Source: Bacteroidota bacterium
GTDB taxonomy: Bacteria; Bacteroidota; Bacteroidia; Bacteroidales; FEN-979
Length of the DNA: 40,000 nucleotides
Assembly: GCA_014382125.1 (NCBI GenBank)
Contig: JACNKI010000130.1
Span: 1 to 40,000 of the forward strand
Reading direction: 5' to 3'
Made by a program: the position numbers and the translations under genes. Under the pieces are notes generated by a model, which had not been told where the DNA came from, did no database searches, and saw only the letters and a list, made by a program, of their open reading frames with translations. Positions 3,939-38,073 of the stretch are shown here, piece by piece (positions within the stretch are counted from its first letter, which is position 1; every line of letters starts with the position of its first letter).

Positions 3939-6203
3939 ATGCCAATCTTTAGCGGTTTTGCAGTAGCACCAGCCATTATTGCTCCATTCGGGCAACAACG
4001 AAGGGATACTACCGGTGCAGGACTCTCATTCGCAACGAGAGCTTCTGCTTCGAGGGAAAAAGAAGAACGTCTTCAACAGCAATTCGAAGACAAAGTTGCT
4101 ACACAGGATATATTCTATAATGCCTCACTTCAATATAATCTCGGGGTGACTGCGTTGAAGCACAAGCGTGAATCGTACAAGAACCAGATGGCTGACCTGA
4201 TATGGCAGTCGGGGAATCCGTTTAGAGCTATCGAATCCGATGAATACAAAAAGTTGAGAGAAGGATATATGCTTACTGATATGGAAGAAGCCGGATTTAA
4301 GTCCGGCCTTGGCACAAGTAAGATGTATGCTGATATCGGGCAGAAGAAACTCGAAGAGAAGGATTGGCCTACAAATGTTTATTTCGGCCCGAGAAATGAG
4401 GTAGTTGGTGTAACTACAAAAAATGGAAAAAAGGAGTACACGCATGATTTGGATGAAGCTGATTATGTTTTATCAAATCAAGAGATGGTTGATCTTCAGG
4501 TTCGGCCAAATACTCCTTTTTCTGTCAATCTCGGTGAAAGTGTTTATTATTCAGGAGGATATGAGCCAAATCAGGATCAGACGGAAATCCTTGCACTACT
4601 TTCAAAGGCTGGAAGTATATCTACTGAAACCGAATTTAAAGATAAAAAGAGTTCAGAAGAATTGGCATTAAATGGGATTAATAAGTTAATGACAGTTATC
4701 AAAACAGAGAAAAGTAATCTTTTACAGCTTAATAGTCTTGGTGAGATATTTCGTGGAGAGATGTCTGAACCGGCACAAAAGGCAAATTATGCGAAATTCA
4801 TACAGGACATAAAAGGCGATCAGATAACAGCACCAATTTTAAAGCCGATTTTTGACGAAGAAGATAATGGTGACATCAAAATAGAAAAGAAAAAAATGGT
4901 TGATGGAACTACCCAGGATATCCCTGTCTTTCAAAAATATACCCAAAGTGATGTTGATAATGGGACAATTAACCCTGTAACCGGAGAAAAGGCAAAAGTA
5001 GGAGAAAACAAATTTGAACAATACAAAAAATCCGATTACCAGATGTGGCTTGGTGATCAGATCGCAAAATATGAAACCGGTTTCTCAATCATAGAAGAGT
5101 CTGCTAAGATGAACTTGAGGACACTCGGGGAAGATTTCGATGCTGAATTTGAACAGAATATATCGGAAATGTATGCTACTGGTAATCCGCCTACAAGGAC
5201 AAATCAGGTTTGGTGGCATAGTACATCATCGACATCACCTACTGACAGGAATGAATTAGCTGAAATAAAGGATTTTCTTGATGGTATAATAAATAATGAT
5301 CCGGTTGTTGTTAATAATTATCTTGAAAGTAGGAGTTATCCACCAAGTATAATGGCAAAGATAACTGATCACATTAGAATTTATAAAGAACAATTTGATT
5401 CCGGTGAGGGAATTAATGAAGAGTTTAAGGATTTTGTTTCCAAATCAATATACAATGCTATTAATATAGGGCAGCCGGGATATAACGCAGAAGCAAACCG
5501 TGAGCTTATAGAGGCGGATGTAAAAGGTGAAATGTATGTTCCTGAACCATCTGCCGGCCCTGTAATTTCAATCATGGGTTTGTTTAGCGACAGGTATAAG
5601 GTTGGACAACAAAGCAGGGAAGTAGTTCATGCTTCTGTGGCAAACATCAAAACAGCAGAACGGATAAATAAAAATGTAGGAATCCCTGTGAAACATTGGT
5701 ATGTTCCAGATTCATATATCAATACATCTACATTAAAATTGCAGAATTTAAAGGGATTGGGTGTGATTTTACCTGGTGATGTTCCAGGTAATCCGACTCA
5801 ATTACCAGTCGATGCAACTGTTGTTAAGGTAACAGATGGTTTTCAGTTTGGCGGCCCTCAAGGTCTTGTGGCTCCTGGTGTAATTGCCATTGTACTAAAG
5901 AGTGATTTGAGTAAAATCGAATTCTTTGTAAAAGATAGTACAAAGCCGGAAGGTAAACGAAAAACCAATTATAAGGAGATGATGGATTTAATGGATCTTG
6001 GTATTCTTGATCTTGATAAAGCTGATCCAACTCAAATCCAAGTGTATAAGAATATACTTTATGGGCCAAACGAAGCCTCAAAAGGTTTATGGGGTGATCT
6101 TGATAAGTATGTTGCAGTCCCATTTATTCCGACAGAGAATTACTTTTCTACCGATGGTGCCGTAATGAGAGGGAATAAGAATCCAATATATTTTAATAAA
6201 TAA
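3939..6203 (+). CDS. large virion/tail-associated protein (754 aa, function unassigned)
   Basis: The ORF is long with an ATG start, and it ends 2 nt before the giant ORF. No catalytic motif was recognised. The role is inferred from position. Confidence 0.8.
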   Translation: MPIFSGFAVAPAIIAPFGQQRRDTTGAGLSFATRASASREKEERLQQQFEDKVATQDIFYNASLQYNLGVTALKHKRESYKNQMADLIWQSGNPFRAIESDEYKKLREGYMLTDMEEAGFKSGLGTSKMYADIGQKKLEEKDWPTNVYFGPRNEVVGVTTKNGKKEYTHDLDEADYVLSNQEMVDLQVRPNTPFSVNLGESVYYSGGYEPNQDQTEILALLSKAGSISTETEFKDKKSSEELALNGINKLMTVIKTEKSNLLQLNSLGEIFRGEMSEPAQKANYAKFIQDIKGDQITAPILKPIFDEEDNGDIKIEKKKMVDGTTQDIPVFQKYTQSDVDNGTINPVTGEKAKVGENKFEQYKKSDYQMWLGDQIAKYETGFSIIEESAKMNLRTLGEDFDAEFEQNISEMYATGNPPTRTNQVWWHSTSSTSPTDRNELAEIKDFLDGIINNDPVVVNNYLESRSYPPSIMAKITDHIRIYKEQFDSGEGINEEFKDFVSKSIYNAINIGQPGYNAEANRELIEADVKGEMYVPEPSAGPVISIMGLFSDRYKVGQQSREVVHASVANIKTAERINKNVGIPVKHWYVPDSYINTSTLKLQNLKGLGVILPGDVPGNPTQLPVDATVVKVTDGFQFGGPQGLVAPGVIAIVLKSDLSKIEFFVKDSTKPEGKRKTNYKEMMDLMDLGILDLDKADPTQIQVYKNILYGPNEASKGLWGDLDKYVAVPFIPTENYFSTDGAVMRGNKNPIYFNK

Positions 6204-6205
6204 CA

Positions 6206-9200
6206 GTGATGCCAGAAGAACCAATTATTCCACCAAAAGACCGATCAAAAGGAATTGACTTCCTTGGTATGCTTTTGAATAAAAAAAATCTTGCTGATAT
6301 TGAAATGGAACATCAACAAACTGGATTTCCATTAAATATATATACCCGTGATGAACTCATTGACAGATATCCACAAATAAAAGACGATCAACAAAGACAG
6401 AATGATCTGCTTCAGTATCAGGATTCCTGGTTGAAGATGTATAATGCAAAAGGATTCAAACCTTTTGAGACTAAAAGCCTTACAATCCCTGATACAAAAT
6501 TTAACCGGGCGAGATATGGGCCTAAAGCAACTTATTATAATCCCAACACGGCTGAATTTGCTATCCCTGAACCTGAGTTTGGTTATTACTGGCCTAAGTC
6601 TTCAGAGAAGCATGGAGCAACGGGACTTCCTTTTTTAGCAACAGATATAGGAGATCATTTTGCAACATCAAAAGGATATTACATTGATCGTGAAGGAAAA
6701 AAACAGCCACTTGAATTAGCTGGAAATGCTGATGAGCATTTAAAGAGGGTGATGTCTGATGACGGAATGAAATATTATTGGCAGGAAGCTCAACCAGGTG
6801 AAATTATTCCAGGGGATCAGATAAGACAAATTATAGACAGGGATATGTCTTCTGAATCTATCTGGGGTACTATGGCCCGTGGTGCATGGAGTGGGTTTAT
6901 TCCCTTATTATATAAAGGTGTCGGAACAGCAGTATCAAATTTTTTTACTTGGTCTGATAAAGCGATGCGGCTTGATTTGGATTATTATAATCCAGATACA
7001 TGGTATAATAGATTTGGAGTAGATGCAATAAATGATGCCAACTGGATGTCTCCTCAAAATGAAGATGAAAGAAGAGGAGCTTTTGAATCATGGTCATCCG
7101 GATTGTTTAATTTAATGAATGGGACAACACAGATGTTTGGCATGATGGCTACTGGTGGTCTTATTGGGGGATTAGCGAGAGGTATTGGATTTGGGGCAAC
7201 TGCCGGTATGCGTATTGGAATGAACGCTTCTTTTGGTGTTGGGGGTGCTGAAGCTGGTTCTGGAATAAAAGAAGAGTTGGAACGCCTTGGGTATTCGAAG
7301 AATGATATCGAAATGATATTGCCATTGTTTATTAATGCTACAATTCTATCTGAAAGGGTTTTAAGTGCTAATATTGTTCAGCGTTTTGGTGTAAATGCTA
7401 TGATGGGATCTTTTGGGACAAAGGCGAGTCGTATGAAGGCAGGGCAATTATACACTAATGTCTTTGATGAAACTCTGAAAAATGCGAATACTTATTTCCC
7501 AAGATTCTCTGAAACAATGAAAGGAAGGGTAATCCAGAAGGCTTTTACTCGACTTTCACAAGCAAGAAAATATACAAGGGATCTTGCCGGAACGAATAAA
7601 TTCTTTCGGGTTGGGTTTGCTGGTATTGAAGAGGGATTTGAGGAAGGAATTGAAGGAAAATTCTATGATGTTATCAACATGTTCTATAATGGTTACAATA
7701 AGAATGTAGCTAACGAATTTATTGAAGAGTATGATAAATACATTTATACTGATCCTGTTGGATTGAATCGTCCAGGGCAGAATGTTGTGTCCGGTGATTA
7801 TTTTGTAAAGACAAGAAAAGATAATCCGAATGATTGGTCACTTGTCTCAAAAGATCAGTACCGTGAAGATACTGACAGGAGGGCATTCTCTGATAAGATA
7901 TTATCCGGTGAGGCATTGCTGACAGGCGGGAATACGGCAGAAGAGATGGCTATGGCCGCTCTTTCTACGTGGTTGGCTGTTGGTATGATAGGCGGAGGAA
8001 ACCAAAAGCATGTTCAGACAACAGTTATTGATTTTGCTTATCAATCTGTTAAAAATCCCGGAATGAAAGATCAGTTAAGGGAAACATACAGGGAGATGGA
8101 GAAAGATAATGAAGATGCTCTTGGTGTGTTTAAGACTGCTGATGGTGGTGTTACTGATAATGTGGATGAAAGCAAAAGGATGACAAGGGTTGACCTGATT
8201 ATCCAGGAGGTTGAGTTCTGGGAGAACATCATAAAGAAGTACGGCCTTGACTCCAAAGAGGCGAGGTTGGCGTATAATTCAAATATGAAACTCGGGGCGG
8301 AAGCAGCTCGGGCGGCAGGAAAAATAGAGAAGGTACAGGCTGCTATTGTAAGTGTTAGTAATAATGAGCCATTAGAAGAGGATGTTGATACAGGCATAAA
8401 AGCTGGTATGAAAGAAGATCAACTCAAAGATCTGGTAAAGACTCATCAAAAACAACTCGATGATATTGTAACGCCAAAGCCTGGTGAGTTCAATGGTAAA
8501 CCGGGAAAATATAGCATAAGATATACTGATCAGTGGAACACAATAGAACTCTTTGATCATTTCATTGATCGCCAGGCAGAAAATGCAGCCATTGCAAATA
8601 CATCAAAAGAGGCTATTATCCATGAGATACGTTCCGGAAAACGTGCAAGGGGTATTAAACTCGGGATAACGAAAGCATTTGGTATCGACAGTAAGATGCA
8701 TAAGATCGTTGAGGATGAATACCAGAAAGAAATCCAGCGAAAGAAAGCCGAATACAAAAAGAATTATCTCACTGACCGGAAGAAGATGAATGAGATGATG
8801 AGCAAATGGTTCATTGCCACAAATGAGCTTCCGGGTATTAACTCTATAATTCAGGATTACAAGAATAACGAAAACGCCATTCTGCACGACCTTGGCATTA
8901 AAATGGATGACATTGTTCAGCAATATAATGCCGAGATCAAAGAGGCTATACCCGATGAAGAGATTTCCGGTATCATGTCCGGTATTGAAACCCAACTCGA
9001 TGCCGTATCCGAAACCCTTGATAACATCGCACAACTACGTCAGAAGGGCGAGGCTGGTGCAGAAGAAACTTTTACCGAAGGACTTAATTCATTCCGTGAA
9101 GGATTTAGTTCTTTGCTTTATGATATAAATACCGTAATGGAACGGGTGGGAAAAACATCTGCGGAGGCCCTTACCGATGAATCCAACGCTGCCTACAACC

Positions 9201-12200
9201 TTTTCGCAAGGCGTTCTGCGGATGTCCTGTCCCGTTTACAGGGAGAGCTTAAAGCCGACTACGATAAAAGCAAAGCTGATCTGACGGGGATGAATATTGA
9301 CCTGGAAATGAATTATGATATGATTTCCGGTATTATAGCATCAGCAGAAAAAATGGACAGGTCAGCACCAATAGAAGATTTCAGCCAGTTTGCCGAAGGG
9401 GAAAGGTTAAAAAGATTGGTAAAAGCTTTTAACCAAATGTTTAATGAAGCGATCATCAGGACACCTGACGGAGTGTTTACAATAGGTGATCTTTATTCAA
9501 AACATAAAATATTCGCTGACGAAAAGAATGAACAGGATGTTGATAATCCGGATACTGTTTTGAAAGATATCAATGTCATGTTGCAATATCTTGAACGTCT
9601 TGAAAGATGGGTTGATGTCAATTATCCGTTATTTCAGCAGAAAGTGGAAAGAAATGATGACACCTATGAGCATAGTCCTATTGTCCATACTCCGAATCAA
9701 AGGTTAATGGAAGGTGATCGTGAGGCTATCCTTGAATCATTCAAGACCATAAAGAATACATTAAATAAGGTTCAGCGTGCTGCACAAAACGCCCAGGCAT
9801 CGATGGATAAGGAAAACTTCCGCCAGAGGATCCAACAGACGGATCTGAAGATCGGGATCCTGAATGATATTCATCAGTTTAATATTCCCCATGAGACTGA
9901 TAAAGATACACCGTCACTAAATGAACTTGATGGAATATTAAGTGCTATCTGGGCGAAATTAGAAGAGGCTGGCTATAAAGGTGACGACAGGAAATTTCTT
10001 GAAGGATTATGGAGGGATTTCGTTGATGGGAAAGTTGATGTGCAACAAGTCCAGAATCTAATGAATGAGATCGACGCACTTGTTGTTGAAGCGATTGATT
10101 CATTGTCCGGAAAGCTGGATTGGCTGGTAAAAGATATTGGCGTTATGATTGGTCTTCTTACCGAGCAAAACCTGAAAGAGAAAGGCGTTATAAATTATAC
10201 CTATTCTGTGCTGAATGACTTCAATGACAATGTTGCATTAAAACCGGCTACCGAATCTGTTCGTATCGAAGGTGGTTCAACCAGACACGGCTATGAAAGC
10301 GGAAGGATATCTTTTCAACAAGGCGGATCGCAGGGAAACTATTCAGATGAATACCTCTTTCACCTTGCCACCAACGTCCACCGTTGGAATGAATACGGAA
10401 GAAACAGGAAACCAAAATACTCTTCGATCTATATTGCTATCAAAGACTATATCGCAGAGAAAGAAGAGATGTTCAAAAACGGCAAGCGTACCTTTGCCCC
10501 TACCATCGACCAGGAGAACGTATTGCTTCATGCAATAGGATTCTATTTCAGTCCGGCAAACCCGCTTGTCACGGGCGGTACGTCAGTGATCGGAGAGAAC
10601 ATCCAGAAGATACTCAATTCTATCCTTGTAAGGGGATATGGTGGAACAGGCAAGTCAACGCAACTATTTACGGACATGATAGGCGTTTTGTCTAACCTGA
10701 TGAAGCGTCCGTTGAAAATCGGTGTTGTAGTGTCTACGTATGACCTTGCCAACGGGTATCTTAAGCAGAAAGAAATTGCAAACGATAAGCTTGAGAATGG
10801 TGAGTTTGATATCATATACACCGATGAGATGCTCGACAAAGACCTCAATAACCAATATGATTTATTATGGGTGGATGAGGTTTCCCTTCATGGCGAACAA
10901 CAGACTATTGACCTTGGCGAAAAGCTCAACACGATAAATACGGCCACGCAACTTCCCGTATTCTTTGTCGGTGATGATACCCAGGTGGTAAAGCAAGAGG
11001 CAAAAGGAGATTATGATGCGTTATGGTATAACTATTCCAGCGAGAGGACATCCCCGTTGAATATTGTTCACCGTACCGGGAAAAAAGTCTTTCATGCATT
11101 CCAGAACAAATTAAGAAGCCAGAAGTCTTCCACATCGAATGCCAAAATAGAGATTGATAACTATGGATATTCTGTCGATGAAGATGGCGGCAAGCATGGC
11201 GTTGAGTCATTCCTTACAATAAATGACGTTCTTGATTCATTCCTTTTGAGGATAACAAACGACAACCAGGAGATAGATCCCGGCATCGGGCCTGAAGAAG
11301 TTGTCCTGATTGTCCGTGACCAGGAAGCAGAGTTGATGTTCAGGGAGTATTTCATCTCAAAAGGTTATGAGATACCTCAACGCCTGATCAAACATCTCTA
11401 TCCGCAGGGAATAAAACAGGATCGGGAAAAGCTCGTATCCGGATTGTCGGCAGAGAATGTGTTCTTCGCATACAACTTTGACAGTGCCACATCCGATTTT
11501 GAATACCAGACCAACCTGTTTAAGATCCGCAATATCCTTACCGGAACCACACGCCAGGTAGAGTACGTGGCTATCGTCCATGATACCGTACAGGATAAGG
11601 TGGATCATATAGGAGAGTATAAATACAACAGGGAGAACGTACAGGGTTTCTTTAAAGACTTCCGTGAACGGCTGGATGCCGTATTAAGTAAATTCAAAGA
11701 GGATGGCGGAGTCGTTACCCCGCCAACACCACCGGGAACGGAAAAGCACGCTAACACTTATGAGGCTGCTGATCCCGAAGATGTCCGTTCCGAGACAAAG
11801 AAACAAAACACCAGGCTCAAGCGTCAGCAGATAAGCGAATCGTTTACGCATATCTCCGATCTGATCAACGAGAAGCTGAAGATCGGTGCTGATCCGGGAG
11901 CCAAGGCAAGGGGATTGTTCTATCACAACCTGATGAAGTATCATCTCAACCCGAGTGAACCTCTCTTTGATGAGCTTGTTAAAAATGCACAGGCCATGGT
12001 TGGTGATGATAAGATCAACGAACCGGAAGCCTTTGTCCGTTCTTTTCTCAATGCCATTGAATTAAGGGATGATGTACGTGAATTCCTTCATGATATAAAT
12101 ACGGTTATCTCCCCTGTCATTAAGACTGAAAAAGGAAACAACAAGGTACAGGCAAATCCGTTCGCTATCAAGTTCGTGGGATATACCAAAAAAGAGGGGG

Positions 12201-15200
12201 AGATAGTCCCTATCGTGGATATCCTTCACCTTAACCACTCGAAGGCAAAAGAGTCCCAGGCATTAGACAACAAGCCGATGTTACAGGCACAACTCGGTGC
12301 TTATATGGCCATGGTCAATGATATGGGCATGCTCGTCAACAACGTGCATTTACACACATTCCGTTTTGAAACGAAGAAAGAAACCGGAGAAGGGATCCCT
12401 GTCCAATACCGGTTCAGTCCACTGAAAACGCTTACATCGAAAGAGAAGCTTGAAGCGTTAAAGTCGGCCAGCCAGGTATCGTTCATTTCCGATCTCGGTA
12501 TCACCGAACCGCAGACACCTACCGAAGAGGAGTATTTTGAAGTCGAACGTGTTGCCGATGACAGTTTAAAAGGAATGAAGTTCTCCGATCCAAGGGTTTC
12601 CATTGAACCTGATAAATATTTCGTTGACGATTCCAATATTCCGTCCGTTATCACGAAGATCACAAAGAAGACCGAAGGAAAAGAGGTCACGACATATGTT
12701 CACCTGATGCAAAACCGGGTTGAGCAAAAGATGACATTACCGGACTTTCTTGCACACGGGTTTAACTTCATGGACATCGAATATTTTGAGTATATGTTCA
12801 TCGAATCGGCATTGAAATTCTCCGATGCAGAGAACAGAAGACTTATCTCTTTCACACCACATTTCCCTGCATTGTCTGCTGATATTGCAGATGTATATAA
12901 TATCTCTTTTAAAGAGTTCGCCAATGACATATCATTCTGGAACCAGGATGAGAATAAGTTGCTCAAAGCGAGAAGCCTTGTGACTGAAAGGTTTATCAAC
13001 TCGAAACAGACGAGGGTTGTAAAAAGGTATCTGCCCAGTGTGAACCTCATGGACATCGCCAAAGACGGAACCATCAAAAGCAAATCGAGGAAATTCGATC
13101 ACGTTATGGTCAATGCCATCAGTGAGGATTCAATAAAAGAATTTTTCGATAAGCCGTTTTTAGAAGAACTGTCAAAGATATTCAGTTACGAGTTAACGAT
13201 AAAGGACATCAGGACTCTCGGGTTGAATGTGTTGAGCAATGATTCCCAAGTCGAATATGACTTCAAGGATGCCTCTTTTACTGCTGTCGGACTGTTTGAC
13301 AGGTCAAAACAGCGTAAGATGGCGGAAGAGTACCTTAACCTGGCGGAAGGGCAGACGACAAACGGGTTAAGCGACGAGGCGTTTTTGGATAAAATCTTTG
13401 AAAACGCATTTCTCTCGGAGATAAATCGTGATAAGGCGAAGTCAACAGAAACCAGCCAGCGTAATTGGAGAGAGTTCCTTGTGGAGATGAACAAGCACCG
13501 GTTGCGTACCATGCGAGATGCCAAGATGAGGGGAGATTTAGATACAGAGCTTGTAGAGGCTTCAAGCGGAAGAATGGTACGTGATGGTAAACGGACGACA
13601 AAAACCCTCACAGAGCTTCTTAATATGGCAAAACCGCATGGTTTTACCGTTGACACCACAGCCGTTGAGATATCCGATATCGGGATTGAGAGAAAACGGT
13701 TTGCCGTATCATTTAATCGTGGTTCTGCCGAACCAACGGTAGTCTATTTTGACGGTAAAAAGATCCATGGCGGGGAGAACGATCAGGAGTGGAATGATTA
13801 CAAGCAACAGGTCAAAGATGAATTTGATAATTTAAAAAACATTATCGATGACAAGAACCTTTCATTGAGGCAAAAAAAGATTAAGCTGGAAAACTCCACA
13901 GGATTTCAGTTGATCATGGCAAACAAATCATTTTTCACGGAAAAGGATGAAGAGGGTGGGCTGACAACGAAAGATACGTTCTCTCCTTATATGTATGTCA
14001 ATAAAAAGAATTACCTGAATATCATTTACCGGGGAGATGAGGATACACGGATTAGCCATTATCTCGACCAGATAAAATTCATATTTGATGAATTCGTTGT
14101 AAAAGCGGTACAGGGAGAAACCGGTGGTGATATGTATTACAATCCGTATATCGACTCGAAAACCGTTGACTTCAGCAAGATCGAGGCTGAAGGGATAGAT
14201 TTCTCCAATGTATCGTTATGGTTTTCACCGTCTGATTTCAGGGGGGATGAAGAGGCCGTAAGGACGATCAAGCATGTGGGTACTCCCCTTGGTGACGGGA
14301 CTGAATTTATCCCGTTCTCAAGCGAGATGTCATACACTCCGTTGAGTTTTAGCTTGATAGACGTTGAACAGGCCAAAGGGATCCTTATCGATATTCTCGG
14401 ATCGGAGAACGTAAAGAAACACCTTTACACGAAAAATTTAGATATTAAAAATAACATCCTTCGCAACCAGTATAATAAAAAGGTATTTGGTTTGTTCGAC
14501 AAGGGGATGATCCGTTTTTCAACCTTTGACGGGAAAGTGGAACACCTTACTCCACGCCACGAGGCGATGCACTTTATTACCGGTGTGCTGTTGAGTCCGA
14601 GGGAGAGAGCCAGCCTTCTTAAAGATACAAAGAAGAGGATGGTAAGCGTCAAATACACAAAAGAAGAAGGGGATACCATTTACGAGTATAACCGTGAACA
14701 GGACATAACAGACAGGGATGCTTATGAATATATGGCTGTTATTTTCGAAGACGGATCATATAAGACCACTTTCACTCCGAGAGGGAAAACGCTTCTTCAG
14801 AAATGGCTGCATTTTATCAGGGCCTTTATAGATAAGTACATGAGACATAGAACATCCTTGCTTGGCGTATTATACGCTGCTGACAGGGGGGTATTCGCAA
14901 AAGACAATGCGAGAAACCATGAGGTTGTAAACGATCAGATGTCGAAGGTTGTTGTAAACAAATACAGCAACTCTTCCGCACGGAATATTTCGATATCCAG
15001 GTTCGGCAACGAGACCAACATCAACAGGATCCTTGAAAATGAGGTTATCCCGAAGATATTCAATAACTTCCTTCCAACGGCAAAGACCATGAACCCACGC
15101 ATGGCCGGACGTTCCACATGGGAGGCTATCATCAAAGCTCACAACTACTACCTTAATGCATGGAAGTATTATACTAAAAAGAACGAAGATGGTGAGATCG

Positions 15201-18200
15201 TGAACCCGGTATCATTCACGATGTTGCAGGGTAAAGAAGTGATAGAGGTCGAGGATGTCCCGATGGCGGATGTCACCGTCGAGCAATACCTGGGGGTACA
15301 GCGATATGCCGAACAGAGCAATTCACGCCTTGCTTATACGTTTTTAAAAAGCTATGAAGTGTTTAACCTGGGGAGATACAATCACGGCAAGAGCATGCTT
15401 TATATTTTCGTCCAGAGGGCATTATCGCATTTGAACCTTGAATCCATACTTGCCAATCCAAACCAGGAAGTAGGGAATTTCGCAAACATTATATTCAAAG
15501 ATCCAAGGGAAGAGGGGGCCGATATCAACCCGTTTGATACTATGAACCCGATGCTTACGGCCATGTATTCCGCTATCCCGTTGTACAACCATAGTACAAT
15601 GAAATTCAAGGACAGCAACAATCAGCCGTATGGACATGTCAACCCGAGTCGTCTTCACGCCCTGTTGACATATTCCATGTTCCGCCTGAAATCCGAACAG
15701 ACGAAGTTCAGGACGGATGCATGGATGAATGTCCTTGAAGAGATGCTCAAAGAGATGCCCGACAGCGTTGACAAGAATACGATATTTAGTTTCCTGGTTG
15801 AATTCGGTAACAGGATTGTGGATCCACGGACACAACGGATCAGGTTTACGCATGATTACAATGTGATAGGCCATGTGGATCACCGGAACGATAAAAACAA
15901 AGAAGGCACCGAGAAGCTGATCGGACTCGGGTACATGCAGATAATGAATGATTATTACAAAAAAGGAAGGATACATAAGTTCTTCACCGGTGAGGGAAGT
16001 GTACGCCAGCTTGGATATAAGCTTACGGAAGAGGAATACAGGGATAAGATACGAACATATGAATCACTGATATCCGGATTGAAGTATTATTACCTGACAT
16101 TGTTCAACCGCATGAGTGAAAAGGCTGTTGCCCCGTACAATCTAAGGGATTTCAAGTTACAGCCTGTCACCAACCATGAACGGCTGATGAAGAAGAAAGA
16201 CACCAAATCAGCCGTTATCAACCGGATCAGTTCATATAATGACAGTGGACTGAACAATAAAATCATCAATGCACTTACTGAAGGACATGCGGATCATACG
16301 TATACAGTAACCAAAGACGGTGTATATGATATTGAAGGGACGCTGATGGTCAAGATGCCTCCCCGTAAAACAAAAAAGGATTCCGGCAACGTGAACTTCT
16401 CTTCGATGAAAGAACTGCTTTCGTTTATCGGCATTGACACCGAGATCGATCTGCTTGAAAACATCTATGACCCAAAGAAGGTAAAAGAGGATTTAAGGGT
16501 TCAGCCGGAGAGAACGTATCGTTACCTGGAAGACCATGTTTATGCTTTCATGCTCTCTTTGAAAGTGAACTCATTGATATATCCCGTCATCCAGCAGAAC
16601 GAAGAGAAATTCTTCAATAAAGAGATCAAAGCGAAGGATCTGATAAAATTGTTCGATGAGAAGACCGATGGGATGTATTCGCTTCTGAATAACATCTACA
16701 AGGACTATTACAGCAAGGAGCTTCGTCCGGAAGACCTTTCTAATCTTGATGAAAAGAGCCGTGGTACGCTTATGAACGCACCCACACCGCTTGATTTTTG
16801 GAGAGCAATAGAGTCTATCTCCGAACGTGCCCTGACATTTAATTACCAGTTGAACAACCCGATGTCCATCAATCCGGAAGGAAACCCGTCATACGGATTC
16901 CAGAACGGATCATTTCTGTCTGACCGCCTTCCTATGCCCACCAAAGAAAAACAGAAGTCTTCGGTACTTCTGCGTAAGCTCGTTTTGGATGATGGTGCAT
17001 TCACCGAAGGAAATCCTTTCTATGGCGGGATGACTCCTGATGGAAGAACCCTTTATAATAATCCTATATTATCCGGTAAAATAGAATTTGACCATCTCAA
17101 TTTCATCTCCGGCTTTGAATATGTCGATAGCGGTAGTTTGTTCTGGAAGCTGTCAAAGAAAAATAAGTTCCAGGCAGTGCTGGAATCACTTAAAAAAGCA
17201 TTGCTCGGAGACACGGTATATCAGTATGTTCCCTCTATTATTGATCCATTGGCTGATAAAAGTGCTATGCCGTTCATCCACTGGGGATTCAAAGGTCTTC
17301 GTGGGATGCAGCAGATCGCCAACGTTGAAAAGGGATCATTCAATAATAAGCCTTCATTGAAGTCCGTTGAGGTTAATTATGCTGCCATACTGCCAACTCT
17401 TTATGAGCTAAAGACATATTACGTCAATGTGATGGAACAGAAAAAGGCCAAATGGAATGCCATCACACCGGAGAAATCTGTCCAAAAGACCTCAACAAAA
17501 GGAAGACAAATCTTAAAGGAGCTAAAACGTGGCGGGGAATACATTATCGTAGGCGGAAGGATACACCAGGGCAACGAGATCACCCAGAGAGGAAACCCGT
17601 TGCTGGATTTAACATATGATTCGTTTGATCAGAAGGCATCTAATTATGCCGAATACCTCAAAGATCATGTCACGGATGTCAAAAGGGCGTTCGGAAATCA
17701 CTTCGAATCATTCGGACAGGATCTAAAGGAGTCCGGATATAAGATGTCGAAGGCGGATCTGTATATTTTTGACAAATACCAGATCCAGGGAAAAGACCTT
17801 GGAAGCTGGATTGCGGAAAGAGATAAGATCTATGCGGAGTTCAAAGTCAAGACAGATGAGATACAGGATCGTATCAACAAGGCAAAGAAAGCAAAGAACA
17901 ATGCACTGGTAGACAGGCTCAACCTTGATAAAGAAAAGATCAAGAACCAGCGTGGTGAAGCCGTAAGCAAACCCAACGAGGTTATCAAGCAGTTCCGCAA
18001 AGAGGTTGCGGAAAACAATTATCTCGATGACAAGGGGAACATGAACCCGTTCCTTGAAACCGCTTTTTGGAGCCATTATATCCTTGGGGAATCTCTCGGA
18101 ACGCTAATCCGTGGCTCTTCGTATGAATATGAAGATGTCATAGACTATATCAAGCGTGGTGCAGGGCCTATCGCCCCGGGGAACACGTTCGACATCGACT

Positions 18201-21200
18201 TCCACCGGGACAATAACCTGATGGGAGAAAGCTCACGGGTATATATCACCGAGGACTTGCGTGGCAACAACACTCTGTTTGAACAGCTTCAGAAGAGTGG
18301 TGTCATACGAAAGGATCTGAAGATCACTGACGGAGCATCTATCCTGAACCCGGTATTCCAGCAGATGATGCGGATACAATCGGGGAGTATTATATCTAAT
18401 CTCGGCAACGGGAGCTTTAAGACGATGAACTTTTACACACATCCCGCTACCGGGAAGAAAATATACTTCAAGTTCAACCAGTTTCCTACAAGTGCATCCG
18501 CATTTCAGAATGATCCGTTCTATCACGGCCTGACGAGGTTTATGCTCGGGGATCATCTTTATCACCGGCTGCTTGATAACCTTGGGCGTGGGAAGATGTC
18601 ATGGTATGATGCCATTAACGAGATCATCTATTACCTTGAGGATGAAGGAAAAGAACACCGCCAGGATATGATCGATTACACTGTCTTTGAGAGTGGATCG
18701 AAGTGGGCGATCACCAATATCAACCCGATACGTACAGACGCAAATGGTAACGCTATCTTTAATCCGAAAGACAATAATCCGGATAACACCATTGATGTCA
18801 GCAACCGTACATTGAGGGTACAGGTCATCACCAAACAGGATACCATTGATCCGTATACATCTACTCCCAGGCAGATACTTTATAATATCATAGCCGGTTC
18901 TCATAACATCGAGATCGCTGAAAGCATAAACAGCATCTTTAAAGACTACACGGACAAAGAGAACCGTACCATGGAAAAGGTCGTCAAGAAAGAAACCCAG
19001 ACGAAGTTCATCCGTGGTGCCGTCAAAGACCAGCTTTTCCGTTCGGAAGACCCGATGAAGATGATGGATATGGTGCGTGACCAAAACATCGATCCGTTCG
19101 TTTACAGGGATAAGTCCCACCAGGCTGTAATCAACCGGCTGAACAAGGCTCTCACACCGAGATTGCCTGGTGCTTTCCATGTGCAGGCGTTCTCTATGCC
19201 CAGGATCATCTGGATAGACGGACAGCCGATGCTGAAAGAAGATGTAGATGTCCTTCCTGAAAATTATACAACGGAAAACCTTAAACCCATACAGTACGAA
19301 TATAAAGGGACTCCGATAGAATACTACGAAGACCTTATTGAACATATAAACAGTGATCCTTCAAATGTCGTATACCGTCCCGCCCAGGTCATAGCACCGT
19401 TCAAAGACCGTGAGAAGTTCGGATTATCTGCCGAGACGACACTTCAGCAGGCCATGTCTTACCGCCTTATTGAAACAAATGAAGCGGGAGAAAGTTTCCC
19501 CGGTGAAAAAACAAGCCTTTATGAGCCGACATCGGAGAAGAGAACCGAAGAAGAGCTTGTGAAGCTGTTCATGGAAAATGACATTGATTTTTACAGCGAA
19601 GTAAGCGAAGAGGTAAACCGCAGATACGCTGCATTGAATACCAAGCAACTTACGCAGCTTTCGGGACAGGATTTGGAGATACAGGAAGTCAGCAACATCC
19701 TTACACTGGAAAAGACTTATGTCCCTAAAGTCACCGGTGAGGCGAAGAAGGTGATCATGGCAAAACTCTACGCCAGCTACTTCCGTAATTTCAATGATGC
19801 ACTGGACGTATTCTTTGTAAGGATTCCTACAACGATTGCTTCGATGGGTGCTATGGGGCGTATTGTAGCTTTCGATAACGGAGTGGAGAACACCCTGTAT
19901 ATATCTGCTGAAAAGAACATCCTTGACGGTTCCGATTGGGATGCAGACCAGTTGAACGTGATCTATCGCAGTATCACAGAAAAGGGATATAACACGGATG
20001 CCACATCCAACCGTTTGTTTGAGACCATCAAGAGGTTTTACGATAACCCGTTGAACTATGAATTTATCCTTTCGAGGATTACGGTGGATGAACTCGTTGA
20101 TCTGCGTGATGAATTGTATGAGAACAAAGAGATACGTGAATTCCTTCCGAACAACTTGGGATCGGCTGTACGCATGAGTGATGTAAACACCGATGGAAAG
20201 ATCATGGTGGGCCATTTTGTCAACCTGTCTAACTATTTTTACAAGATGGCTTCGTTACCGCAGAAGATACGCAATGAATTGTTCCCGAACACGATATTTA
20301 CAAATGATGAGAAATTCATGGAGTCAATCCGTGCTATTTCCATCCTTGTCAATGCGGCCACCGATAATGCAAAGCTCGGGGGACTGCTCGGGATGCTGAA
20401 CGTCAACACCCAGACATCACCGCTTATAGCAGGGATCCTGTTCGAAGGCTATAACGAGGCCGATAAGGAAAGGGGATACAAAAACCTTCTTGATAAGATG
20501 GTAAAGATCCTCAATTCGGATCAAGTCCTCAAGGCATCGAACAACTCCCAGAACCATATCACCCAACAGTTCAAAAAGAAGCTGTTCAGGCACCTTCCCA
20601 ATGTAACGAAGAAGAACACTGAAAGGATCGACCAGGAAGATGTATTATTGGCAAACGGACTCTGGGAAGAGGGGATGAAACCTATCGATATCCGTCACCG
20701 CCTTCGCCAGTATACGCATACGGGAGAACAACTTAGAAGGTTCGGTGATGTCGCAACGCTTATCAGTGGGATAAAAGGAAGCCTGTTCGATCTGAACCGT
20801 AAGATAGCCAATGTACAGTATGACATGGGCATCGAACTGACCAACTACCTTTCTCCTATCCTTGCGATGAGGGCAAACAATGAAGATGTAGAGTATGCGG
20901 ATATCAAAGAAGAGTTGCCTGTCCCGGACATGAAAGAGCAAGTGGAGTTCGCAGTCGGACAGCGTGTTGCCAACCTCTATACCGATGAAGACCTTTATGC
21001 CAATGAGGATGTGGAAGAAGATGATGAGATGCTGGCCGATGAGGATGAGGAAACAAAGACAGGGCCGAACCTTATCAACAGGGTGAAGAACCTTGAAGAG
21101 AATGAACGTAAGATCCGTGAGAAGTTCAATATAGCAGAAGTTGTGAAAGAGTTCCCGCACATGATTGCGGAGCTTGAGTCGTTGGTTCGTGTCAAAGAGA

Positions 21201-24200
21201 TGATCAGCTATATCCCCATGGAAGAGATGTACAACCAGACTTTTGATACCGCACTGAAGATGATCCGCAAGGACAGGATATTCGATAAGTCTGCGTACAA
21301 GGCTTTCGAGAGGGGATTCAGTGATTATATTCTGGGGCAGTTCATATCGGATAATTACACCAACGTAGAGTACAACAATAATTTCCTGACAGAGAACGGG
21401 TATACGCAAAATAACTTCGACTTCTCCGAGATTGAAGACCGCACCGTATTTGTTCTCTCCATGCCGTATTATTTGAGAGAACTCAAAGATGTCTATAATG
21501 ACAATAAATTCATCTCTTCATTGAGTGTCGTAAGCCGTAAGTCCGATAATCACCTTATCATAGAACTTACCCATAGCAGACAGGTTCCACCGGAAGTCCT
21601 TTCGGAGATGGAGAGTGACTTTGAGAAACTGCCGGAAGAGATAAAAAGTGTGTTCAGGCTGTATTCCGCATTGGTGTATGGATTTAACAATCCCAACGGG
21701 AGCTTCAGTGCCATCCTCGACTCGGAGATCGAGATCGAGTTCTCGGCATGGATGGAAGATGCTGTCATCGACACCGACCTTGCAGCCAGAGAGATACTGG
21801 TAAAGACACACAAGCTTATTCCTTACGATTTCAGTTACAGGGTTAATGAGTCTGTCATAGGACAATACACCGGTGCTGATCTGGTGAGGCTGAACATGTC
21901 CTATAAAGAGGATCCGATGATCATAGAACAGGATGAATTTGGTGATTACACCAAACCTGTCGTGAGTCCGTACTATATGTGGATGAATTCTTATACCGGC
22001 AAGAATACGCTTACTGATAATATATCTTCGATAAACATGCCTTTTGAAGAAATGCTTCGACTGATGGCAGGAGAAAATGCAGTCATCCCTGTCGGGAGAT
22101 ATTTCATCGAGTTCAAGAATTGGGCAAAGAGAAAATTCAACAAAGACACCACTATCCAGGTTATTCCTACCGGAAGAACCGTCAACGCAAACCTGATAAA
22201 AATCGATGATACAAGGATGGTTTCGTACTCTCCTATGATGCCAAGCGATGTTGTTGAATCACGCATCAATGAACCTAATTACACCAGGCTGACACAGGCG
22301 GTAAAGAGCAGTGATGGATTAGTAACGATAATAGATCACGTACAGAAAGTCTTCCCGAACATTAAATATTCGTTCGTTGATAAGAGTACGGCACTGCACC
22401 CTTCGATGAAATCATATATCCATGGCGGTATCGTTCATTTGAACCTGTCAAAGATAAACCCCCATGATCCGTTCCATGAGGCAACGCATATCTTTTTAGA
22501 GATAGCAAAGAATCTTAATCCGGAGATGTATTCCGGTCTTGTGGATGAGGCATTGGAGATGATAAAATCTGATGATCCTGTCGTACAGGTGGTTAAAAAG
22601 CTGTATTCGGAAAAGAGCAATGAAGACCTTGTTGATGAGGTCATAGCAACCGTTGTCGGATTCAAGAGTGCCGAGAAAGTGATGGCGTTCCTGTCAGGCA
22701 AACCGATGCCGGAACTGGAACAGACATCAAAGACCATCTTTGAACGCATCAGCGATAAAGTGTCGGAGTTCTGGGATATGATACAGAGTTTCGTATTTGA
22801 TCTGTTTAATGTCGATAACTACGCCCTTCGTGTCCCGGCAAACGAATTCTCTGACCTGTCTATCTCTTCCCTTGCAGACATCATCATTAAAAGCTCAACC
22901 AAAGGTGGTATGTTGAGTACCATCACCAGCGACCAGCTTAAAAAGCTGATGCATTCCCGTACGGTGGAGTCACGGTTTGAGAATGGCGGGATCAAAAACG
23001 TCAAAGACTTCTTCGATGCCACTGTCTATGACATGGAGAAAGACGAGCCTCTGCTTGCCAAGATCAACCTTGAGAACGTAAAGAACATCATTCGCAGATA
23101 TGGGAATCTCCCCTCTTTCTATGTGGGATATGAGGTAAACTTCAGTGGGGATCTGAACTCTGTTGAGAACGAGGCCAGGATAAAGGAGTTGATGAAGGTG
23201 CATGACAGGATGGATAACGAGATCGTTCCTGACAGCCGTGACTGGCTTAATGACGGTGCGAGCATCGAAAAGAACATCCGTTACACGCAACGGGAGACAG
23301 GCGAAGAATTCGGTTATTACACTATGGATGTGATGAATAAGCTTAAACGTGCTATCCTTTACACCAAACACACCAAGTTTGCCCGTTACAGCGACCTTGC
23401 CAATATAGAAGGCATGAAGCACCTTTATAACCCGATGTTCAAAGGGTTTGATCCGTTGATCGCTATCGAATACAATAAAGACGGCCAGATAAATCTATCC
23501 ATCTATGATATCACATCGAACACGCTTGAGGGGACAGGGAGCCGTTCTATAAGGGGAAATATGCTAAGACGGTTTTACAGTGATTATCTTGTAAGAAAAA
23601 TAAAACTCTTCAATGATATCACCCTGACCAACAACAATGCCGATACCAGGAGGATGATGGTACAGCTTTTGGCGAATCACCTTCTGGCCGACAGCAGTGT
23701 GAGTATATCTGACATGGCCGTTATCGGGCTGAGGAGAAGCAAGGTCGTGTATAAGAACATCGACCAGTATGAAATGAACAACAACATAAAGGCCATGGGC
23801 AAATACGATGACTTCATGGAGATCCTCTCGAAAGAGATGCAGGAGTTGTTCCAGGAGAAGAACATCCGTTATGCCGATATTGACCTTTGGAGAGAGCTAT
23901 CAGGCTTTTACCAGGCACGGGATATGAAAGACCATGGACTTGAAAAGGTGATCATGGAGAACGGGGAGGAGCCTGTCACAACGGAAGAGAAGAAAGTGAT
24001 CCTTCGCCACCGTCTGTTGTATCTTGAACGGAACCTGAAAAAGAAAAGCGACCTGAATACTGAATATGCCATAGATATCATCCGTGAGATGCGGTTATTG
24101 TATGAGCTGCTGTCATGGTATCACGATATGCCGTTGAACCAGGCACAGATAAACCCTCATACACGTATCAACCAGACGATGTTGTTTATCCATGACGGGA

Positions 24201-29878: not shown

Positions 29879-30595
29879 TCACCCTTCATATATCAATATA
29901 TCAGGGGCAATTCCTCTGATCTTTTCGATCTCTATATCAATTTTGGTATCCCGGTAATCCATCCTTATCTCTTTGGCCTCAACGCTTGCCAACAGGCAAT
30001 CCATTTCATGGTCACGGGGATTGATGTGGATTTCAACTTCAAATTTCTTCTTCTCTCCGCCTTTGAAGATCGGCATATGCAGAACAAACGCCTTGGGGAT
30101 ATTGCTCTCTACGATCTGGTTCATCAGGTCACGCTTGTTTCCGACATCATCAGATTTGGATTCCATGTCTTTGTTTACTTTTCCTTTAAAGGCACGGAGT
30201 TCCGCAACGAGCTTCATGGCTATCGTACTATCTTCGAAGCACCAGCGATGCATTTTGATAAAATCAGAAAGCTCTCTCGGGTTCCTTTCAGTGGGTGTGT
30301 TGATACCGAAGGCAACGAAGTCTTCATGTAGTTCCATTGCACCGACAACATTCCCGGCATAGTAACTTGTCTCATTAAATTCAAGATCGATCCTCATCTT
30401 GTCTGACAGCCTGCTGATCTCTATATTTGCAGATAACTGGTCAATAGTTGCGATTCTCTTTTCGAGAAATCTCGATACCGTATCAATATTGCCATTGATT
30501 TGAAGCTTTTCCGGTTCACGGAGTTCTAATGCTTGTCCTTGTCTGATCTCTAAGGTTTCTGTACCTTCTTTTACTGTTACATTTAATTCTTCCAT
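29879..30595 (-). CDS. hypothetical protein (238 aa), last gene of - strand operon
   Basis: The ORF has an ATG start and is followed 20 nt later by the terminator. No motif was recognised. Confidence 0.8.
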   Translation of the reverse strand: MEELNVTVKEGTETLEIRQGQALELREPEKLQINGNIDTVSRFLEKRIATIDQLSANIEISRLSDKMRIDLEFNETSYYAGNVVGAMELHEDFVAFGINTPTERNPRELSDFIKMHRWCFEDSTIAMKLVAELRAFKGKVNKDMESKSDDVGNKRDLMNQIVESNIPKAFVLHMPIFKGGEKKKFEVEIHINPRDHEMDCLLASVEAKEIRMDYRDTKIDIEIEKIRGIAPDILIYEG

Positions 30596-30613
30596 TTGTA
30601 ATGGTTTTTATGA

Positions 30614-30805
30614 TTAATGATTTGATTTTATTTCTTTACCTTTTATATCAAAAAAGATCTTTAATCCGAATATTCTATAATATAATCCTTCCTGATATTT
30701 ATTACAATTTTTACAAAAACGTACAGTAGCGGTTAGTATTCTTGTATCGCTTCTGTAATTAACCCATCCGTAAGTGAATTCATGTTTATGAAACATTTTT
30801 CTCAT
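30614..30805 (-). CDS. hypothetical small protein with single CxxC (63 aa)
   Basis: The ATG at 30805 sits in an ATGA overlap with the upstream mini-gene stop. The protein contains RFCKNCNKY. Confidence 0.55.
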   Translation of the reverse strand: MRKMFHKHEFTYGWVNYRSDTRILTATVRFCKNCNKYQEGLYYRIFGLKIFFDIKGKEIKSNH

Positions 30806-30951
30806 ACAAATTTATTTTTACAATTTGAACATTCGTATACTTCTATCCATGTGGTGTTGATTAATTCGGAATGTGAATAAGCTACAAATCCGGCACCGCA
30901 TTTTGGACAGTTATGAAATATTTGTTTAAGATATTTTATAAATTTTCTCAT
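30802..30951 (-). CDS. zinc-ribbon mini-protein (49 aa, not in ORF track)
   Basis: Manual translation gives MRKFIKYLKQIFHNCPKCGAGFVAYSHSELINTTWIEVYECSNCKNKFV, with CPKC and CSNC pairs. ATGA overlaps occur at both ends (30948-30951 and 30802-30805). Confidence 0.65.
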   Translation of the reverse strand: MRKFIKYLKQIFHNCPKCGAGFVAYSHSELINTTWIEVYECSNCKNKFV

Positions 30952-31541
30952 GGAATATAACAGTTTGTGGGATTATCTTTATGAACGTCTATAAGAGGAC
31001 AGGTTTTCTCACGGAATTGCTTTAGGTTAAACGGATTCATAATGATATGGACTCCTTTTTTAGATGGTATCAATGTGACGAATTTGTTAATGCCTATCGG
31101 CTCACACTCCCTTTCGGCAATCAAGACCATATTGTTTATTTCCCGTTTATTCATTTTGGTATCAATATCCAATATCCATCGAGCCGGTTTCTCATTATGT
31201 CCTTGTCCGCATGCACGGTCATAGACCCGGTAACAATGGTTGTAACTCTGGTTCGACATTGAATTCGCCAGATTAACCATCGTTTTATAAGCCACAAGGC
31301 GATAACTCCGCCTGTTTAACCGGATACATGCCCTGGCGTTAAAGTGGTCGCAGAGAGCTTTAATTTGATCCATGTGTTCAATCAAATATTCTACGCTGTT
31401 GATGAAATAGTTCCGGATTACTTTTGATGCGGAACCGAGTTCTTTATGTTCTGACTTTCGTTGAAGGATTTGAAGGTAATAGAAGTCGTCTTCACTGTCG
31501 AATTCCAGCAGGGGGATGATTTTATTGAGATTATCAACCAT
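30948..31541 (-). CDS. hypothetical protein (197 aa), partner of the DUF5131-like gene
   Basis: The ATG start overlaps the upstream gene by 8 nt. The protein contains WILDIDTK and KKGVHIIMNPF, but no family could be assigned by eye. Confidence 0.75.
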   Translation of the reverse strand: MVDNLNKIIPLLEFDSEDDFYYLQILQRKSEHKELGSASKVIRNYFINSVEYLIEHMDQIKALCDHFNARACIRLNRRSYRLVAYKTMVNLANSMSNQSYNHCYRVYDRACGQGHNEKPARWILDIDTKMNKREINNMVLIAERECEPIGINKFVTLIPSKKGVHIIMNPFNLKQFREKTCPLIDVHKDNPTNCYIP

Positions 31542-32196: not shown

Positions 32197-32229
32197 GATC
32201 TGGAAATTTATCTTAAATATATTCCGAGT

Positions 32230-32667
32230 TTACTCATGGCTTTGAAGAGTCGTCTGCATCTCATTCGGCATTAACCTTCGGGTACTAAGCTTATTTCCTT
32301 CTTTATCGTAGAGATGCATATTGTTATTGGCATGATCAGCCATTCGGTATACTTTGTCCGTCATGGAGAACTGGCCGGTACGGATTGTAACAAGCATCAT
32401 CTTTTGCCTGGCCCGTGCCGGTTTTAATTGTGTACTGTATTGAAGTTTGAGTGCGGCAAGTTCCTCTTCTTTAGCTGTAATCTCGATAGAGAGTTTTGCG
32501 TATTCTGCATTTGCCTGTTCCACCTGTTCTTCTGTAAGAGGTTTTGAGTATGTTTCTACTTCGACTGCATATGCATTGGCAGATAGTAATTCTTCTCTTT
32601 CTTCTACCGGGCAATCTGAAAAGATCACTGGTGGGAATGGCTCACTTTTTTTTGTTTTTTTTGGCAT
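32230..32667 (-). CDS. hypothetical coiled-coil protein (145 aa from ATG)
   Basis: The track start at 32736 is GTG. The ATG at 32667 (MPKKTKK...) reduces the overlap with the upstream gene to 26 nt. Confidence 0.7.
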   Translation of the reverse strand: MPKKTKKSEPFPPVIFSDCPVEEREELLSANAYAVEVETYSKPLTEEQVEQANAEYAKLSIEITAKEEELAALKLQYSTQLKPARARQKMMLVTIRTGQFSMTDKVYRMADHANNNMHLYDKEGNKLSTRRLMPNEMQTTLQSHE

Positions 32668-34360: not shown

Positions 34361-34361
34361 A

Positions 34362-34990: not shown

Positions 34991-35015
34991 TTTTGTTAAT
35001 ATAGTGCCATATAAC

Positions 35016-35065: not shown

Positions 35066-35095
35066 AACCTGTCCTAAGGGGTATCGTAAATATGG

Positions 35096-35992: not shown

Positions 35993-36014
35993 AATGATTG
36001 TTTTATTTTAATTG

Positions 36015-38057: not shown

Positions 38058-38073
38058 TACCCAGGTTCCTTTT

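Follow-up and report, generated by a model that had tools for sequence, protein, structure and literature searches.

The 40,000-nucleotide stretch analyzed here (hereafter, the window) is part of contig JACNKI010000130.1 of a Bacteroidota bacterium assembly (GCA_014382125.1, positions 1 to 40,000 of the forward strand) and contains a giant open reading frame (ORF) of 6,789 amino acids (aa). We are highly confident that this ORF holds an intact helicase module of superfamily 1B (SF1B) within the same polyprotein as a crAss-like virion RNA polymerase (RNAP). By its sequence, the module is predicted to be a catalytically competent SF1B nucleic-acid helicase or translocase. The best overall explanation, to which we give just short of an even chance, is an active module that serves the virion RNAP in early transcription. 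The ORF and the module are located as follows:

6206..26575, plus strand: giant ORF, 6,789 aa, taken from the ORF list; there is no internal stop.
10319..11650, plus strand: SF1B helicase module, aa 1372-1815, in which two RecA-like lobes come after a conserved helical lead-in; delimited with the family alignment (A1), the AF2 model, Foldseek and the Pfam family AAA_30.

The earlier note on this DNA had listed superfamily 1 (SF1) motif peptides at 10496-11585, and in-frame translation of this interval, which corresponds to aa 1431-1793 of the giant ORF, gives exactly those peptides. Altogether, eight SF1 motifs (Q, I, Ia, II, III, IV, V and VI) occur in order and are conserved across relatives, and the structural model has two lobes. 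The individual motifs are:

10496..10537, plus strand: Q motif, APTIDQENVLLHAI (APTIDQ...), aa 1431-1444; Q1436 is invariant.
10631..10660, plus strand: motif I (Walker A), RGYGGTGKST, aa 1476-1485, with K1483; GK[ST] is invariant in all relatives.
10715..10750, plus strand: motif Ia, KIGVVVSTYDLA, aa 1504-1515, assigned from the family alignment.
10859..10885, plus strand: motif II (Walker B), DLLWVDEVS, aa 1552-1560, with D1557 and E1558; [DE]E is kept in all relatives.
10961..10984, plus strand: motif III, FFVGDDTQ, aa 1586-1593; the D..Q pair is kept in all relatives.
11060..11086, plus strand: motif IV, NIVHRTGKK, aa 1619-1627, with R1623; the arginine is invariant.
11435..11467, plus strand: motif V, VSGLSAENVFF, aa 1744-1754; the SG...V[FY] pattern is conserved.
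11534..11578, plus strand: motif VI, ILTGTTRQVEYVAIV (ILTGTTRQ...), aa 1777-1791, with R1783; the LT...R pattern is conserved.

In the aligned family the motifs take the forms [ST]x[DE]Q, GxGK[ST]T, [DE]E, [GA]D[DS]xQ, the motif IV arginine, SG..[SE]..V[FY] and LT...R. The leading glycine of motif III is replaced by alanine in one relative and by glutamate in another. Residue conservation was judged in relatives with a readable helicase region (22-29% identity). GK[ST], [DE]E, D..Q and the arginines of motifs IV and VI are invariant in the window and in P0001-P0005, L012, L014, L015 and L023 (our labels for sequences described below). The earlier note would have taken the lack of a significant profile hit, or substitution of the Walker A lysine and the Walker B acidic residues in most homologs, as the sign of a decayed fold. 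Neither is the case: the family gives significant profile hits, and the residues of both motifs are intact in all relatives examined.

Assignment of the domain to the RecD/Pif1/Dda (AAA_30) branch of SF1 helicases is supported by sequence profiles, and the fold model agrees. For the window sequence alone the evidence is genuine yet marginal; it is with the family alignment that the helicase signal becomes clear. AAA_30 is matched in five of the seven family members (best E 1e-12), and it is also present, unmarked, on the relative P0003 in the JGI precomputed Pfam table. The A1 family profile matches Pif1-like chains in PDB (8BNS, 5FTB and 5FHD, the last two being Bacteroides Pif1) with E-values of 3e-4 to 7e-4. 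Comparison of A1 by hhalign with the stand-alone SF1 helicase of crAssphage, KP06_gp14, gives a probability of 93.6% (E 2e-7). With the window sequence itself, PHROG 325 (‘Dda-like helicase’) is matched at E 1.3e-3 and the PIF1 profile at E 0.07-0.1, and Viral_helicase1 is matched in one of the seven members (E 0.029) as well as in L016 (23 bits). The earlier note had proposed AAA_30 plus UvrD_C_2 and a profile check with these two families, Viral_helicase1 and PIF1. The AAA_30 part is supported by the family, the window sequence itself scoring slightly under the threshold, Viral_helicase1 and PIF1 give the matches just listed, and UvrD_C_2 has no match in the family.

The AF2 model based on A1 consists of two alpha/beta lobes (pLDDT 63, pTM 0.58). 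Foldseek places it with SF1B helicases at probability 1.0, namely SLFN11, SLFN14, SETX/Sen1 and Upf1 in PDB (E 1e-7 to 1e-4) and viral SF1 helicases in BFVD (E-values down to 2e-9). The putative second lobe is recognized from motifs V and VI and from the fold model only. With the helicase region as query, tblastn and megablast against GenBank phages, single-sequence and alignment searches of the word-indexed protein database, a single-sequence phmmer search of PDB and a single-protein search of IMG/VR all gave no match.

The same ORF contains the polymerase, as the earlier note had claimed when it placed the helicase in one polypeptide with the virion RNAP:

18062..20539, plus strand: crAss-type virion RNAP core, approximately aa 3953-4778, located by comparing the clade alignment (A2) with seven known cores in hhalign.
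19934..19948, plus strand: catalytic DxDxD motif, DWDAD, aa 4577, in the context LDGSDWDADQL; the sole D.D.D in the ORF.

The identity of the RNAP is established by hhalign comparison of A2 with an assembled alignment of known cores, namely those of phi14:2 (gp66, crystallized), cr1_1, PhiCrAssBcn3, DAC15, cr111_1, cr273_1 and cr118_1. The probability of this match is 99.3% (E 2e-20, 641 columns); against gp66 alone it is 50% (E 1.6e-4). The catalytic motif is conserved in relatives as D[GN]SD[YFW]DxD, and the corresponding sequence of phi14:2 gp66 is GSDFDID at aa 1361. Both the core homology and the catalytic motif of a gp66-type RNAP are thus present. Sequence searches with the RNAP region against PDB and GenBank phages found no match, nor did the A2 profile find an RNAP in PDB. 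Comparisons of phi14:2 proteins with the HMM (hidden Markov model), taken whole or in 500-column windows, gave no information beyond a C-terminal match to gp076, and the AF2 model of aa 3950-4950 (pLDDT 44) is too poor for use.

Relatives of the window protein were recovered only by an exhaustive phmmer search (query aa 1100-2299 against 1.84 billion representatives) and by pattern scans. The former returned six relatives, namely five giants of 4,544-6,846 aa and one 210-aa fragment. The IMG/VR pattern scans added L012, L014, L015 and L023, plus L013, which lies on the same contig as P0002. The five giants are colinear with the window ORF end to end at 22-29% identity, and L023 scores 209 bits against the A1 HMM. 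Column conservation is 0.40-0.47 over aa 1401-1800 and 0.43-0.48 over the RNAP core, and the GC content of the helicase region (0.43-0.46) is the same as in the rest of the ORF. Since its conservation is at the level of the RNAP core and its GC content matches the ORF, the helicase domain appears to have been part of the ORF for a long time and to be under selection. A recent foreign insertion was also considered and rejected, given this GC content and a position that is fixed across the clade.

Counting the window, nine distinct metagenomic contigs combine the helicase and the RNAP motif within a single ORF, so that the colinearity which the earlier note had suggested surveying does recur. 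The other eight are P0002 (= L013, L022), P0003, P0004, P0005, L012 (= L029), L014, L015 and L023; the contigs come from JGI, ENA and Logan samples. A scan with the NAATDNAKEGG DNA pattern revealed further RNAPs of the clade, on stretches too short to reach the helicase. The fusion state varies, as is known for crAss RNAP-associated proteins, since one ORF ends early and one module is separate. In P0001 the helicase is present and the ORF (L008:10001-23635) ends approximately 40 aa before the catalytic DxDxD position. Another 146 nt of the contig follow, and the early end might be due to an assembly artefact, a frameshift or a genuine split. In L016 (IMGVR_UViG_3300010213_000001, a 244.7-kb contig) the N-terminal module is unfused and forms a separate 2,972-aa ORF (4796-13714), which includes a more distant helicase (AAA_30 27.8 bits, aa ~1745-2110) and an N-terminal region resembling P0002. 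The next ORF, of at least 2,283 aa, is separate and has an acidic tract and an HExxH motif. L016 may belong to a jumbo-sized genome.

Neither megablast of the first 25 kb nor tblastn of the helicase and RNAP regions found a match among 50,697 GenBank phage records. The lone, weak GenBank phage match in the window is that of its muzzle protein to MT835470.1 (20.6% identity). The phage is extremely divergent, and its clade appears to be unrepresented among deposited phage genomes. This crAss-like clade is environmental, small and very divergent, and within it the helicase-RNAP arrangement is fixed.

Fusions of this general kind are already present in public data. A search with the gp66 core returned 145 crAss-like GenBank records. 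In cr118_1 (Suoliviridae, Besingivirus; MT774379.1) the RNAP feature is QOR58373.1, a protein of 4,946 aa (L011:5631-20471) annotated as ‘DNA helicase; VOG0377’. It has HEAFH at aa 1734, GSDFDIDK at aa 3209 and a C-terminal SF1B helicase that scores 90 bits with AAA_30, 83 with AAA_19, 43 with UvrD_C_2 and 27.7 with PIF1. The corresponding protein of cr50_1 (Suoliviridae, Cohcovirus; MT774375.1), QOR58058.1 (4,774 aa, L030:3275-17599), has the same layout and is 29% identical to that of cr118_1; its GSDFDIDK is at aa 3154 and its RNAP part matches gp66 with E 9e-45. GenBank and RefSeq label both giants solely as ‘DNA helicase’ or ‘exonuclease V’. Both are also among the best BFVD fold matches of the window model, together with a helicase fragment of ‘CrAss-like virus sp. 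ctcfK29’. The fused domain of cr118_1 is the single SF1 helicase locus of that phage. The domain fused in Suoliviridae is orthologous to the stand-alone SF1/Dda-like helicases of other crAss replication modules (26-30% identity), where the helicase gene is far from the RNAP gene. The earlier note could not tell whether such a fusion had been catalogued for crAss-like phages. It does exist in public records (cr118_1, cr50_1 and, at JGI, AAA_30 on P0003), but no text discussing an RNAP-helicase fusion was found in the searchable crAss literature, and a query for cr118_1 gave unrelated papers only.

Further features of the giant ORF and of its surroundings help to place it in a phage genome:

60..1583, plus strand: crassvirus muzzle protein, C-terminal part (Pfam crAss_MUZ, 46.3 bits against a cutoff of 27).
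14558..14572, plus strand: first HExxH (zincin-like) motif, HEAMH, aa 2785; RHE[AS]xH in six of six relatives.
22475..22489, plus strand: second HExxH motif, HEATH, aa 5424; conserved, downstream of the RNAP core, at the position of the phi14:2 gp076 zincin motif HEIMH.
25913..26302, plus strand: C-terminal domain, aa 6570-6699, homologous to the C-terminus of phi14:2 gp076.

The C-terminal domain aligns with gp076 aa 1183-1317 (24-26 bits by hmmsearch; 88.5% probability and E 2.7e-6 by hhalign); apart from the RNAP core, no other stretch of the ORF is clearly matched in a cultured crAss-like phage. The region of the first HExxH aligns weakly (hhalign 56%) with that of HEAFH, aa 1734, in the cr118_1 giant. 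Judging by the motifs, the two HExxH sites could be proteases that process the polyprotein. PHROGs and Pfam assigned nothing to the remaining ~6,000 aa of the giant or to most of the neighboring genes.

The muzzle protein marks the locus as a crAss tail/cargo block. A muzzle or ring protein, a protein of ~600-750 aa, another of ~670-830 aa, the giant and three smaller genes were found in the contigs of all five relatives, interspersed in some of them with a few small ORFs upstream of the giant. Matches to crAss_MUZ or CrAss_Ring_1 occur in all five, and oppositely oriented small genes follow the cargo block in four. The synteny of a Crassvirales tail/cargo region, with muzzle/ring genes upstream and divergent early/replication genes downstream, is therefore observed, and past the muzzle and cargo genes the gene order of the window is the same as in phi14:2. 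Judged by the RNAP core, the gp076-like C-terminus, HExxH, the muzzle upstream and the conserved gene order, the giant ORF is a crAss-like ‘transcription block’ polyprotein, in which equivalents of the three RNAP-associated cargo (virion) proteins are fused.

The window homolog of the muzzle protein has 507 aa and aligns only to positions 994-1220 of the 1224 in the crAss_MUZ profile, and the window may start inside the muzzle gene region. The muzzle region is also split in the P0003 contig (343 aa and 481 aa; L004:3-2519); in the other relatives the muzzle is a single protein of 1,300-1,390 aa. Past the cargo block, the minus strand at 29879-39117 carries a block of small opposite genes, most of them without a family assignment. 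Matches in this block are to PHROG 11501, 14949 and 2045, all of unknown function, to DUF5131 (31534-32196) and, weakly, to DUF3871 (35096-35992). tRNA genes were not detected in any part of the window.

What the helicase might do for the polymerase can be considered in the light of the crAss RNAP that has been studied. Phi14:2 gp66 transcribes single-stranded DNA (ssDNA) and denatured DNA efficiently and native phage DNA weakly, but does not transcribe duplex M13, and its crystal structure shows a self-inhibited state (bioRxiv 10.1101/2020.03.07.982082). The closest structural relative of crAss RNAP, QDE-1, needs the QDE-3 helicase and RPA for an ssDNA template, and fused polyproteins, expected to be cleaved, occur in ‘some phages’ (bioRxiv 10.1101/2020.03.07.982082). 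The RNAP-associated giants are carried in the capsid as cargo, which is partially unfolded when it is ejected and precedes the DNA (PMC10172136); virion presence and ejection are known for phi14:2 and crAss001 only (PMC10172136; bioRxiv 10.1101/2020.03.07.982082). By analogy with those two phages, the window product would probably be carried inside the capsid and enter the cell together with the DNA or before it. The polyprotein may then be cleaved into modules, the helicase being co-delivered either fused or after cleavage. Since the studied crAss RNAP prefers ssDNA and barely uses double-stranded DNA, we propose that the helicase would supply the ssDNA template: using ATP, it would move 5'->3' along one strand, thereby producing a single-stranded template for the virion RNAP or preserving it. 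It might open the duplex or the early promoter, or peel off the RNA:DNA hybrid, displacing the transcript and recycling the template. That assisting transcription in this way is the job of the helicase is a tentative proposal, which we hold at distinctly less than even confidence. A functional coupling of helicase and RNAP is suggested by the two fusions at different positions, the Suoliviridae fusion being the strongest indirect argument.

A number of observations weigh against an active helicase that serves the virion RNAP. At the level of identification, the window sequence alone scores 25.5-26.3 bits with AAA_30 (E 7e-6 to 1e-5), which falls slightly short of the gathering score, 27. UvrD_C_2 finds no match in any of the seven family members at E<=0.1, and the helicase model is moderate in quality (mean pLDDT 63; TM ~0.3-0.35 to its matches). 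At the level of function, phi14:2, crAssphage, crAss002 and the Fpv phages are without a cargo-block helicase and have an SF1 helicase in the replication module. The helicase is thus not a universal requirement of the virion RNAP, as most characterized crAss-like phages lack one in the cargo block. A large folded ATPase would also need to unfold for passage through the tail. Packaging, ejection, cleavage and ATPase activity are all features that we infer for the window clade. Finally, the fused domain of Suoliviridae looks like a replication helicase, which makes replication a competing role.

This last role is a serious rival to service in early transcription, although we consider it unlikely; a DNA-entry motor, a recycling factor and an anti-defense effector are less supported. 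According to the replication alternative, a Dda-like replication or recombination helicase merely shares the late-expressed cargo ORF and, following cleavage or delivery, acts in replication or fork remodeling. The closest phage relatives of the domain are indeed the stand-alone SF1 helicases of crAss replication modules, and the only SF1 helicase locus of cr118_1 is the fused one. A stand-alone Dda-like helicase was found neither in the window nor in the 10 kb flanks of relatives, which is weak evidence as these flanks are incomplete and a separate replication helicase may lie beyond them. However, the window domain is highly diverged from the replication helicases, with which only lobe 1 aligns, and instead of being fused end to end it is deeply embedded (aa 1431-1793 of 6,789) between conserved, colinear flanks. 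Alternatively, as the earlier note had proposed, an ejected translocase at the cytoplasmic face might pull the genome in, in analogy to internalization in T7-like phages. Such an entry motor would fit a cargo-block gene directly after the muzzle and putative channel proteins, and SF1B is a fold of processive ssDNA translocases. It is nevertheless a distinctly unlikely role: SF1B enzymes track single strands whereas the DNA that enters is duplex, neither a membrane- nor a channel-binding feature was recognized, and most crAss-like phages inject without such a domain.

Since the best PDB fold matches are Upf1-like (SLFN11/14, SETX, Sen1 and Upf1), one might also think of an RNA-directed or RNAP-recycling factor that, like Sen1/Upf1 or HelD, translocates on nascent RNA or pries nucleic acids off the virion RNAP. 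HelD is one of the known SF1 helicase-like partners of bacterial RNAP (bioRxiv 10.1101/2020.07.20.211821). We regard a recycling factor as improbable: TM-scores to the Upf1-like structures are low (~0.3-0.35), the window domain has no evident Upf1-type accessory domains, and the profiles (AAA_30, PIF1, the Dda-like PHROG and crAss gp14) favor the DNA-helicase branch. Highly improbable, in our view, is an effector of anti-defense or host takeover that clears the incoming DNA of host proteins, restriction complexes or nucleoid proteins, a role which the earlier note had also put forward. The module does lie in the cargo block, Dda-type helicases displace proteins, and DarB of phage P1, a packaged methyltransferase-helicase, offers a comparison. 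Yet Pfam and PHROG scans identified no defense-related partner domain, and both the strict colinearity with RNAP and the independent RNAP fusion of Suoliviridae point to the polymerase. As for a decayed, non-catalytic fold that acts as a structural spacer in the cargo protein, it might be argued from the extreme divergence, the absence of single-sequence matches in PDB, GenBank phages and the word-indexed protein database, and the sub-threshold Pfam score. It is extremely improbable, and indeed essentially excluded by the retention of catalytic residues (Q motif, Walker A lysine, Walker B [D/E]E, motif III D..Q and the arginines of motifs IV and VI, in all relatives at ~25% identity) and by a conservation equal to that of the RNAP core.

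A wider reading is that dependence on an SF1B helicase for the use of duplex phage DNA may be general among crAss two-barrel virion RNAPs; the two architecturally independent in-frame fusions would then be ‘Rosetta-stone’ evidence of a physical RNAP-helicase transcription machine delivered by the virion. This generalization is doubtful. Were it true, it would explain why purified gp66 transcribes only single-stranded templates, and the machine would parallel the QDE-1/QDE-3 partnership in eukaryotic RNA silencing. The only crAss virion RNAP studied is active on ssDNA and was crystallized in the self-inhibited state, which raises the question of how these polymerases begin transcription on double-stranded phage DNA. 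A conserved, apparently active helicase in the RNAP polypeptide is a concrete and directly testable candidate for the missing factor, and the candidate is strengthened because the helicase is found at two unrelated positions in different crAss lineages. The analysis also exposes an annotation problem, namely that RNAP giants of ~4,800-4,900 aa are labeled simply ‘DNA helicase’ in public crAss genomes, and it brings to light a deeply divergent crAss-like clade, which BLAST against GenBank phages fails to find. The embedded helicase is less novel in view of the existing, yet undiscussed, Suoliviridae fusions. The window clade is set apart by the N-terminal position of the helicase, its far greater divergence and an N-terminal module with no detectable counterpart in phi14:2 gp078; of this module, only the first HExxH region aligns, weakly, with the cr118_1 giant.

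Compared with the window, cr118_1 and cr50_1 likewise combine an HExxH region, a crAss RNAP core and an SF1B helicase in a single ORF, and this ORF occupies the same cargo-block position, after the tail genes and before divergent replication genes. In contrast to the window, where the helicase lies in the N-terminal third of the polyprotein, ~3,100 aa before the catalytic motif, theirs is at the extreme C-terminus, past the RNAP. Moreover, theirs is a canonical Dda-like domain, whereas that of the window is far more diverged (26 bits, without UvrD_C_2), and the RNAP regions are not alignable by BLAST. Because both positions and degrees of divergence differ, the N-terminal arrangement of the window clade and the C-terminal arrangement of Suoliviridae are probably independent fusions. 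Phi14:2 shares with the window the homologous two-barrel RNAP core of gp66 (GenBank gp077), with the catalytic context GSD[FW]DxD, and the downstream zincin-type protein gp076, which together with its C-terminal domain is matched in the window ORF. Unlike the window, phi14:2 has three separate proteins (gp077 with its neighbors gp076 and gp078, 5,398 aa in total); Walker A is absent from all of gp076-gp082, and gp078 has no detectable similarity to the ~3,200-aa N-terminal module of the window.

Among stand-alone helicases, KP06_gp14 of Carjivirus communis (486 aa) gives the best profile-profile match, which covers the Q motif through motif IV, and the SF1 helicase of crAss replication modules, such as KP06_gp14, is the best tblastn target of P0003. 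Helicases of this type differ in having genes of their own (~390-490 aa), which belong to the replication block and lie on the opposite strand, and lobe 1 alone of KP06_gp14 aligns with the window family (identity ~22%). The SF1B helicases Pif1, RecD2 and Dda have the same motif order and content, and the window model shows the two RecA-like lobes. In contrast to these enzymes, the window domain is embedded in a 6,789-aa protein and has no 2B/SH3 or UvrD_C_2 signature recognizable by sequence; nor can accessory domains (1B pin, 2B) be made out in its model at pLDDT 63. A further comparison is that with QDE-1, QDE-3 and RPA in Neurospora RNA silencing. QDE-3 is a RecQ helicase (superfamily 2) and a separate protein with no homology to the window domain; the likeness is a functional analogy, that of an RNAP working in partnership with a helicase.

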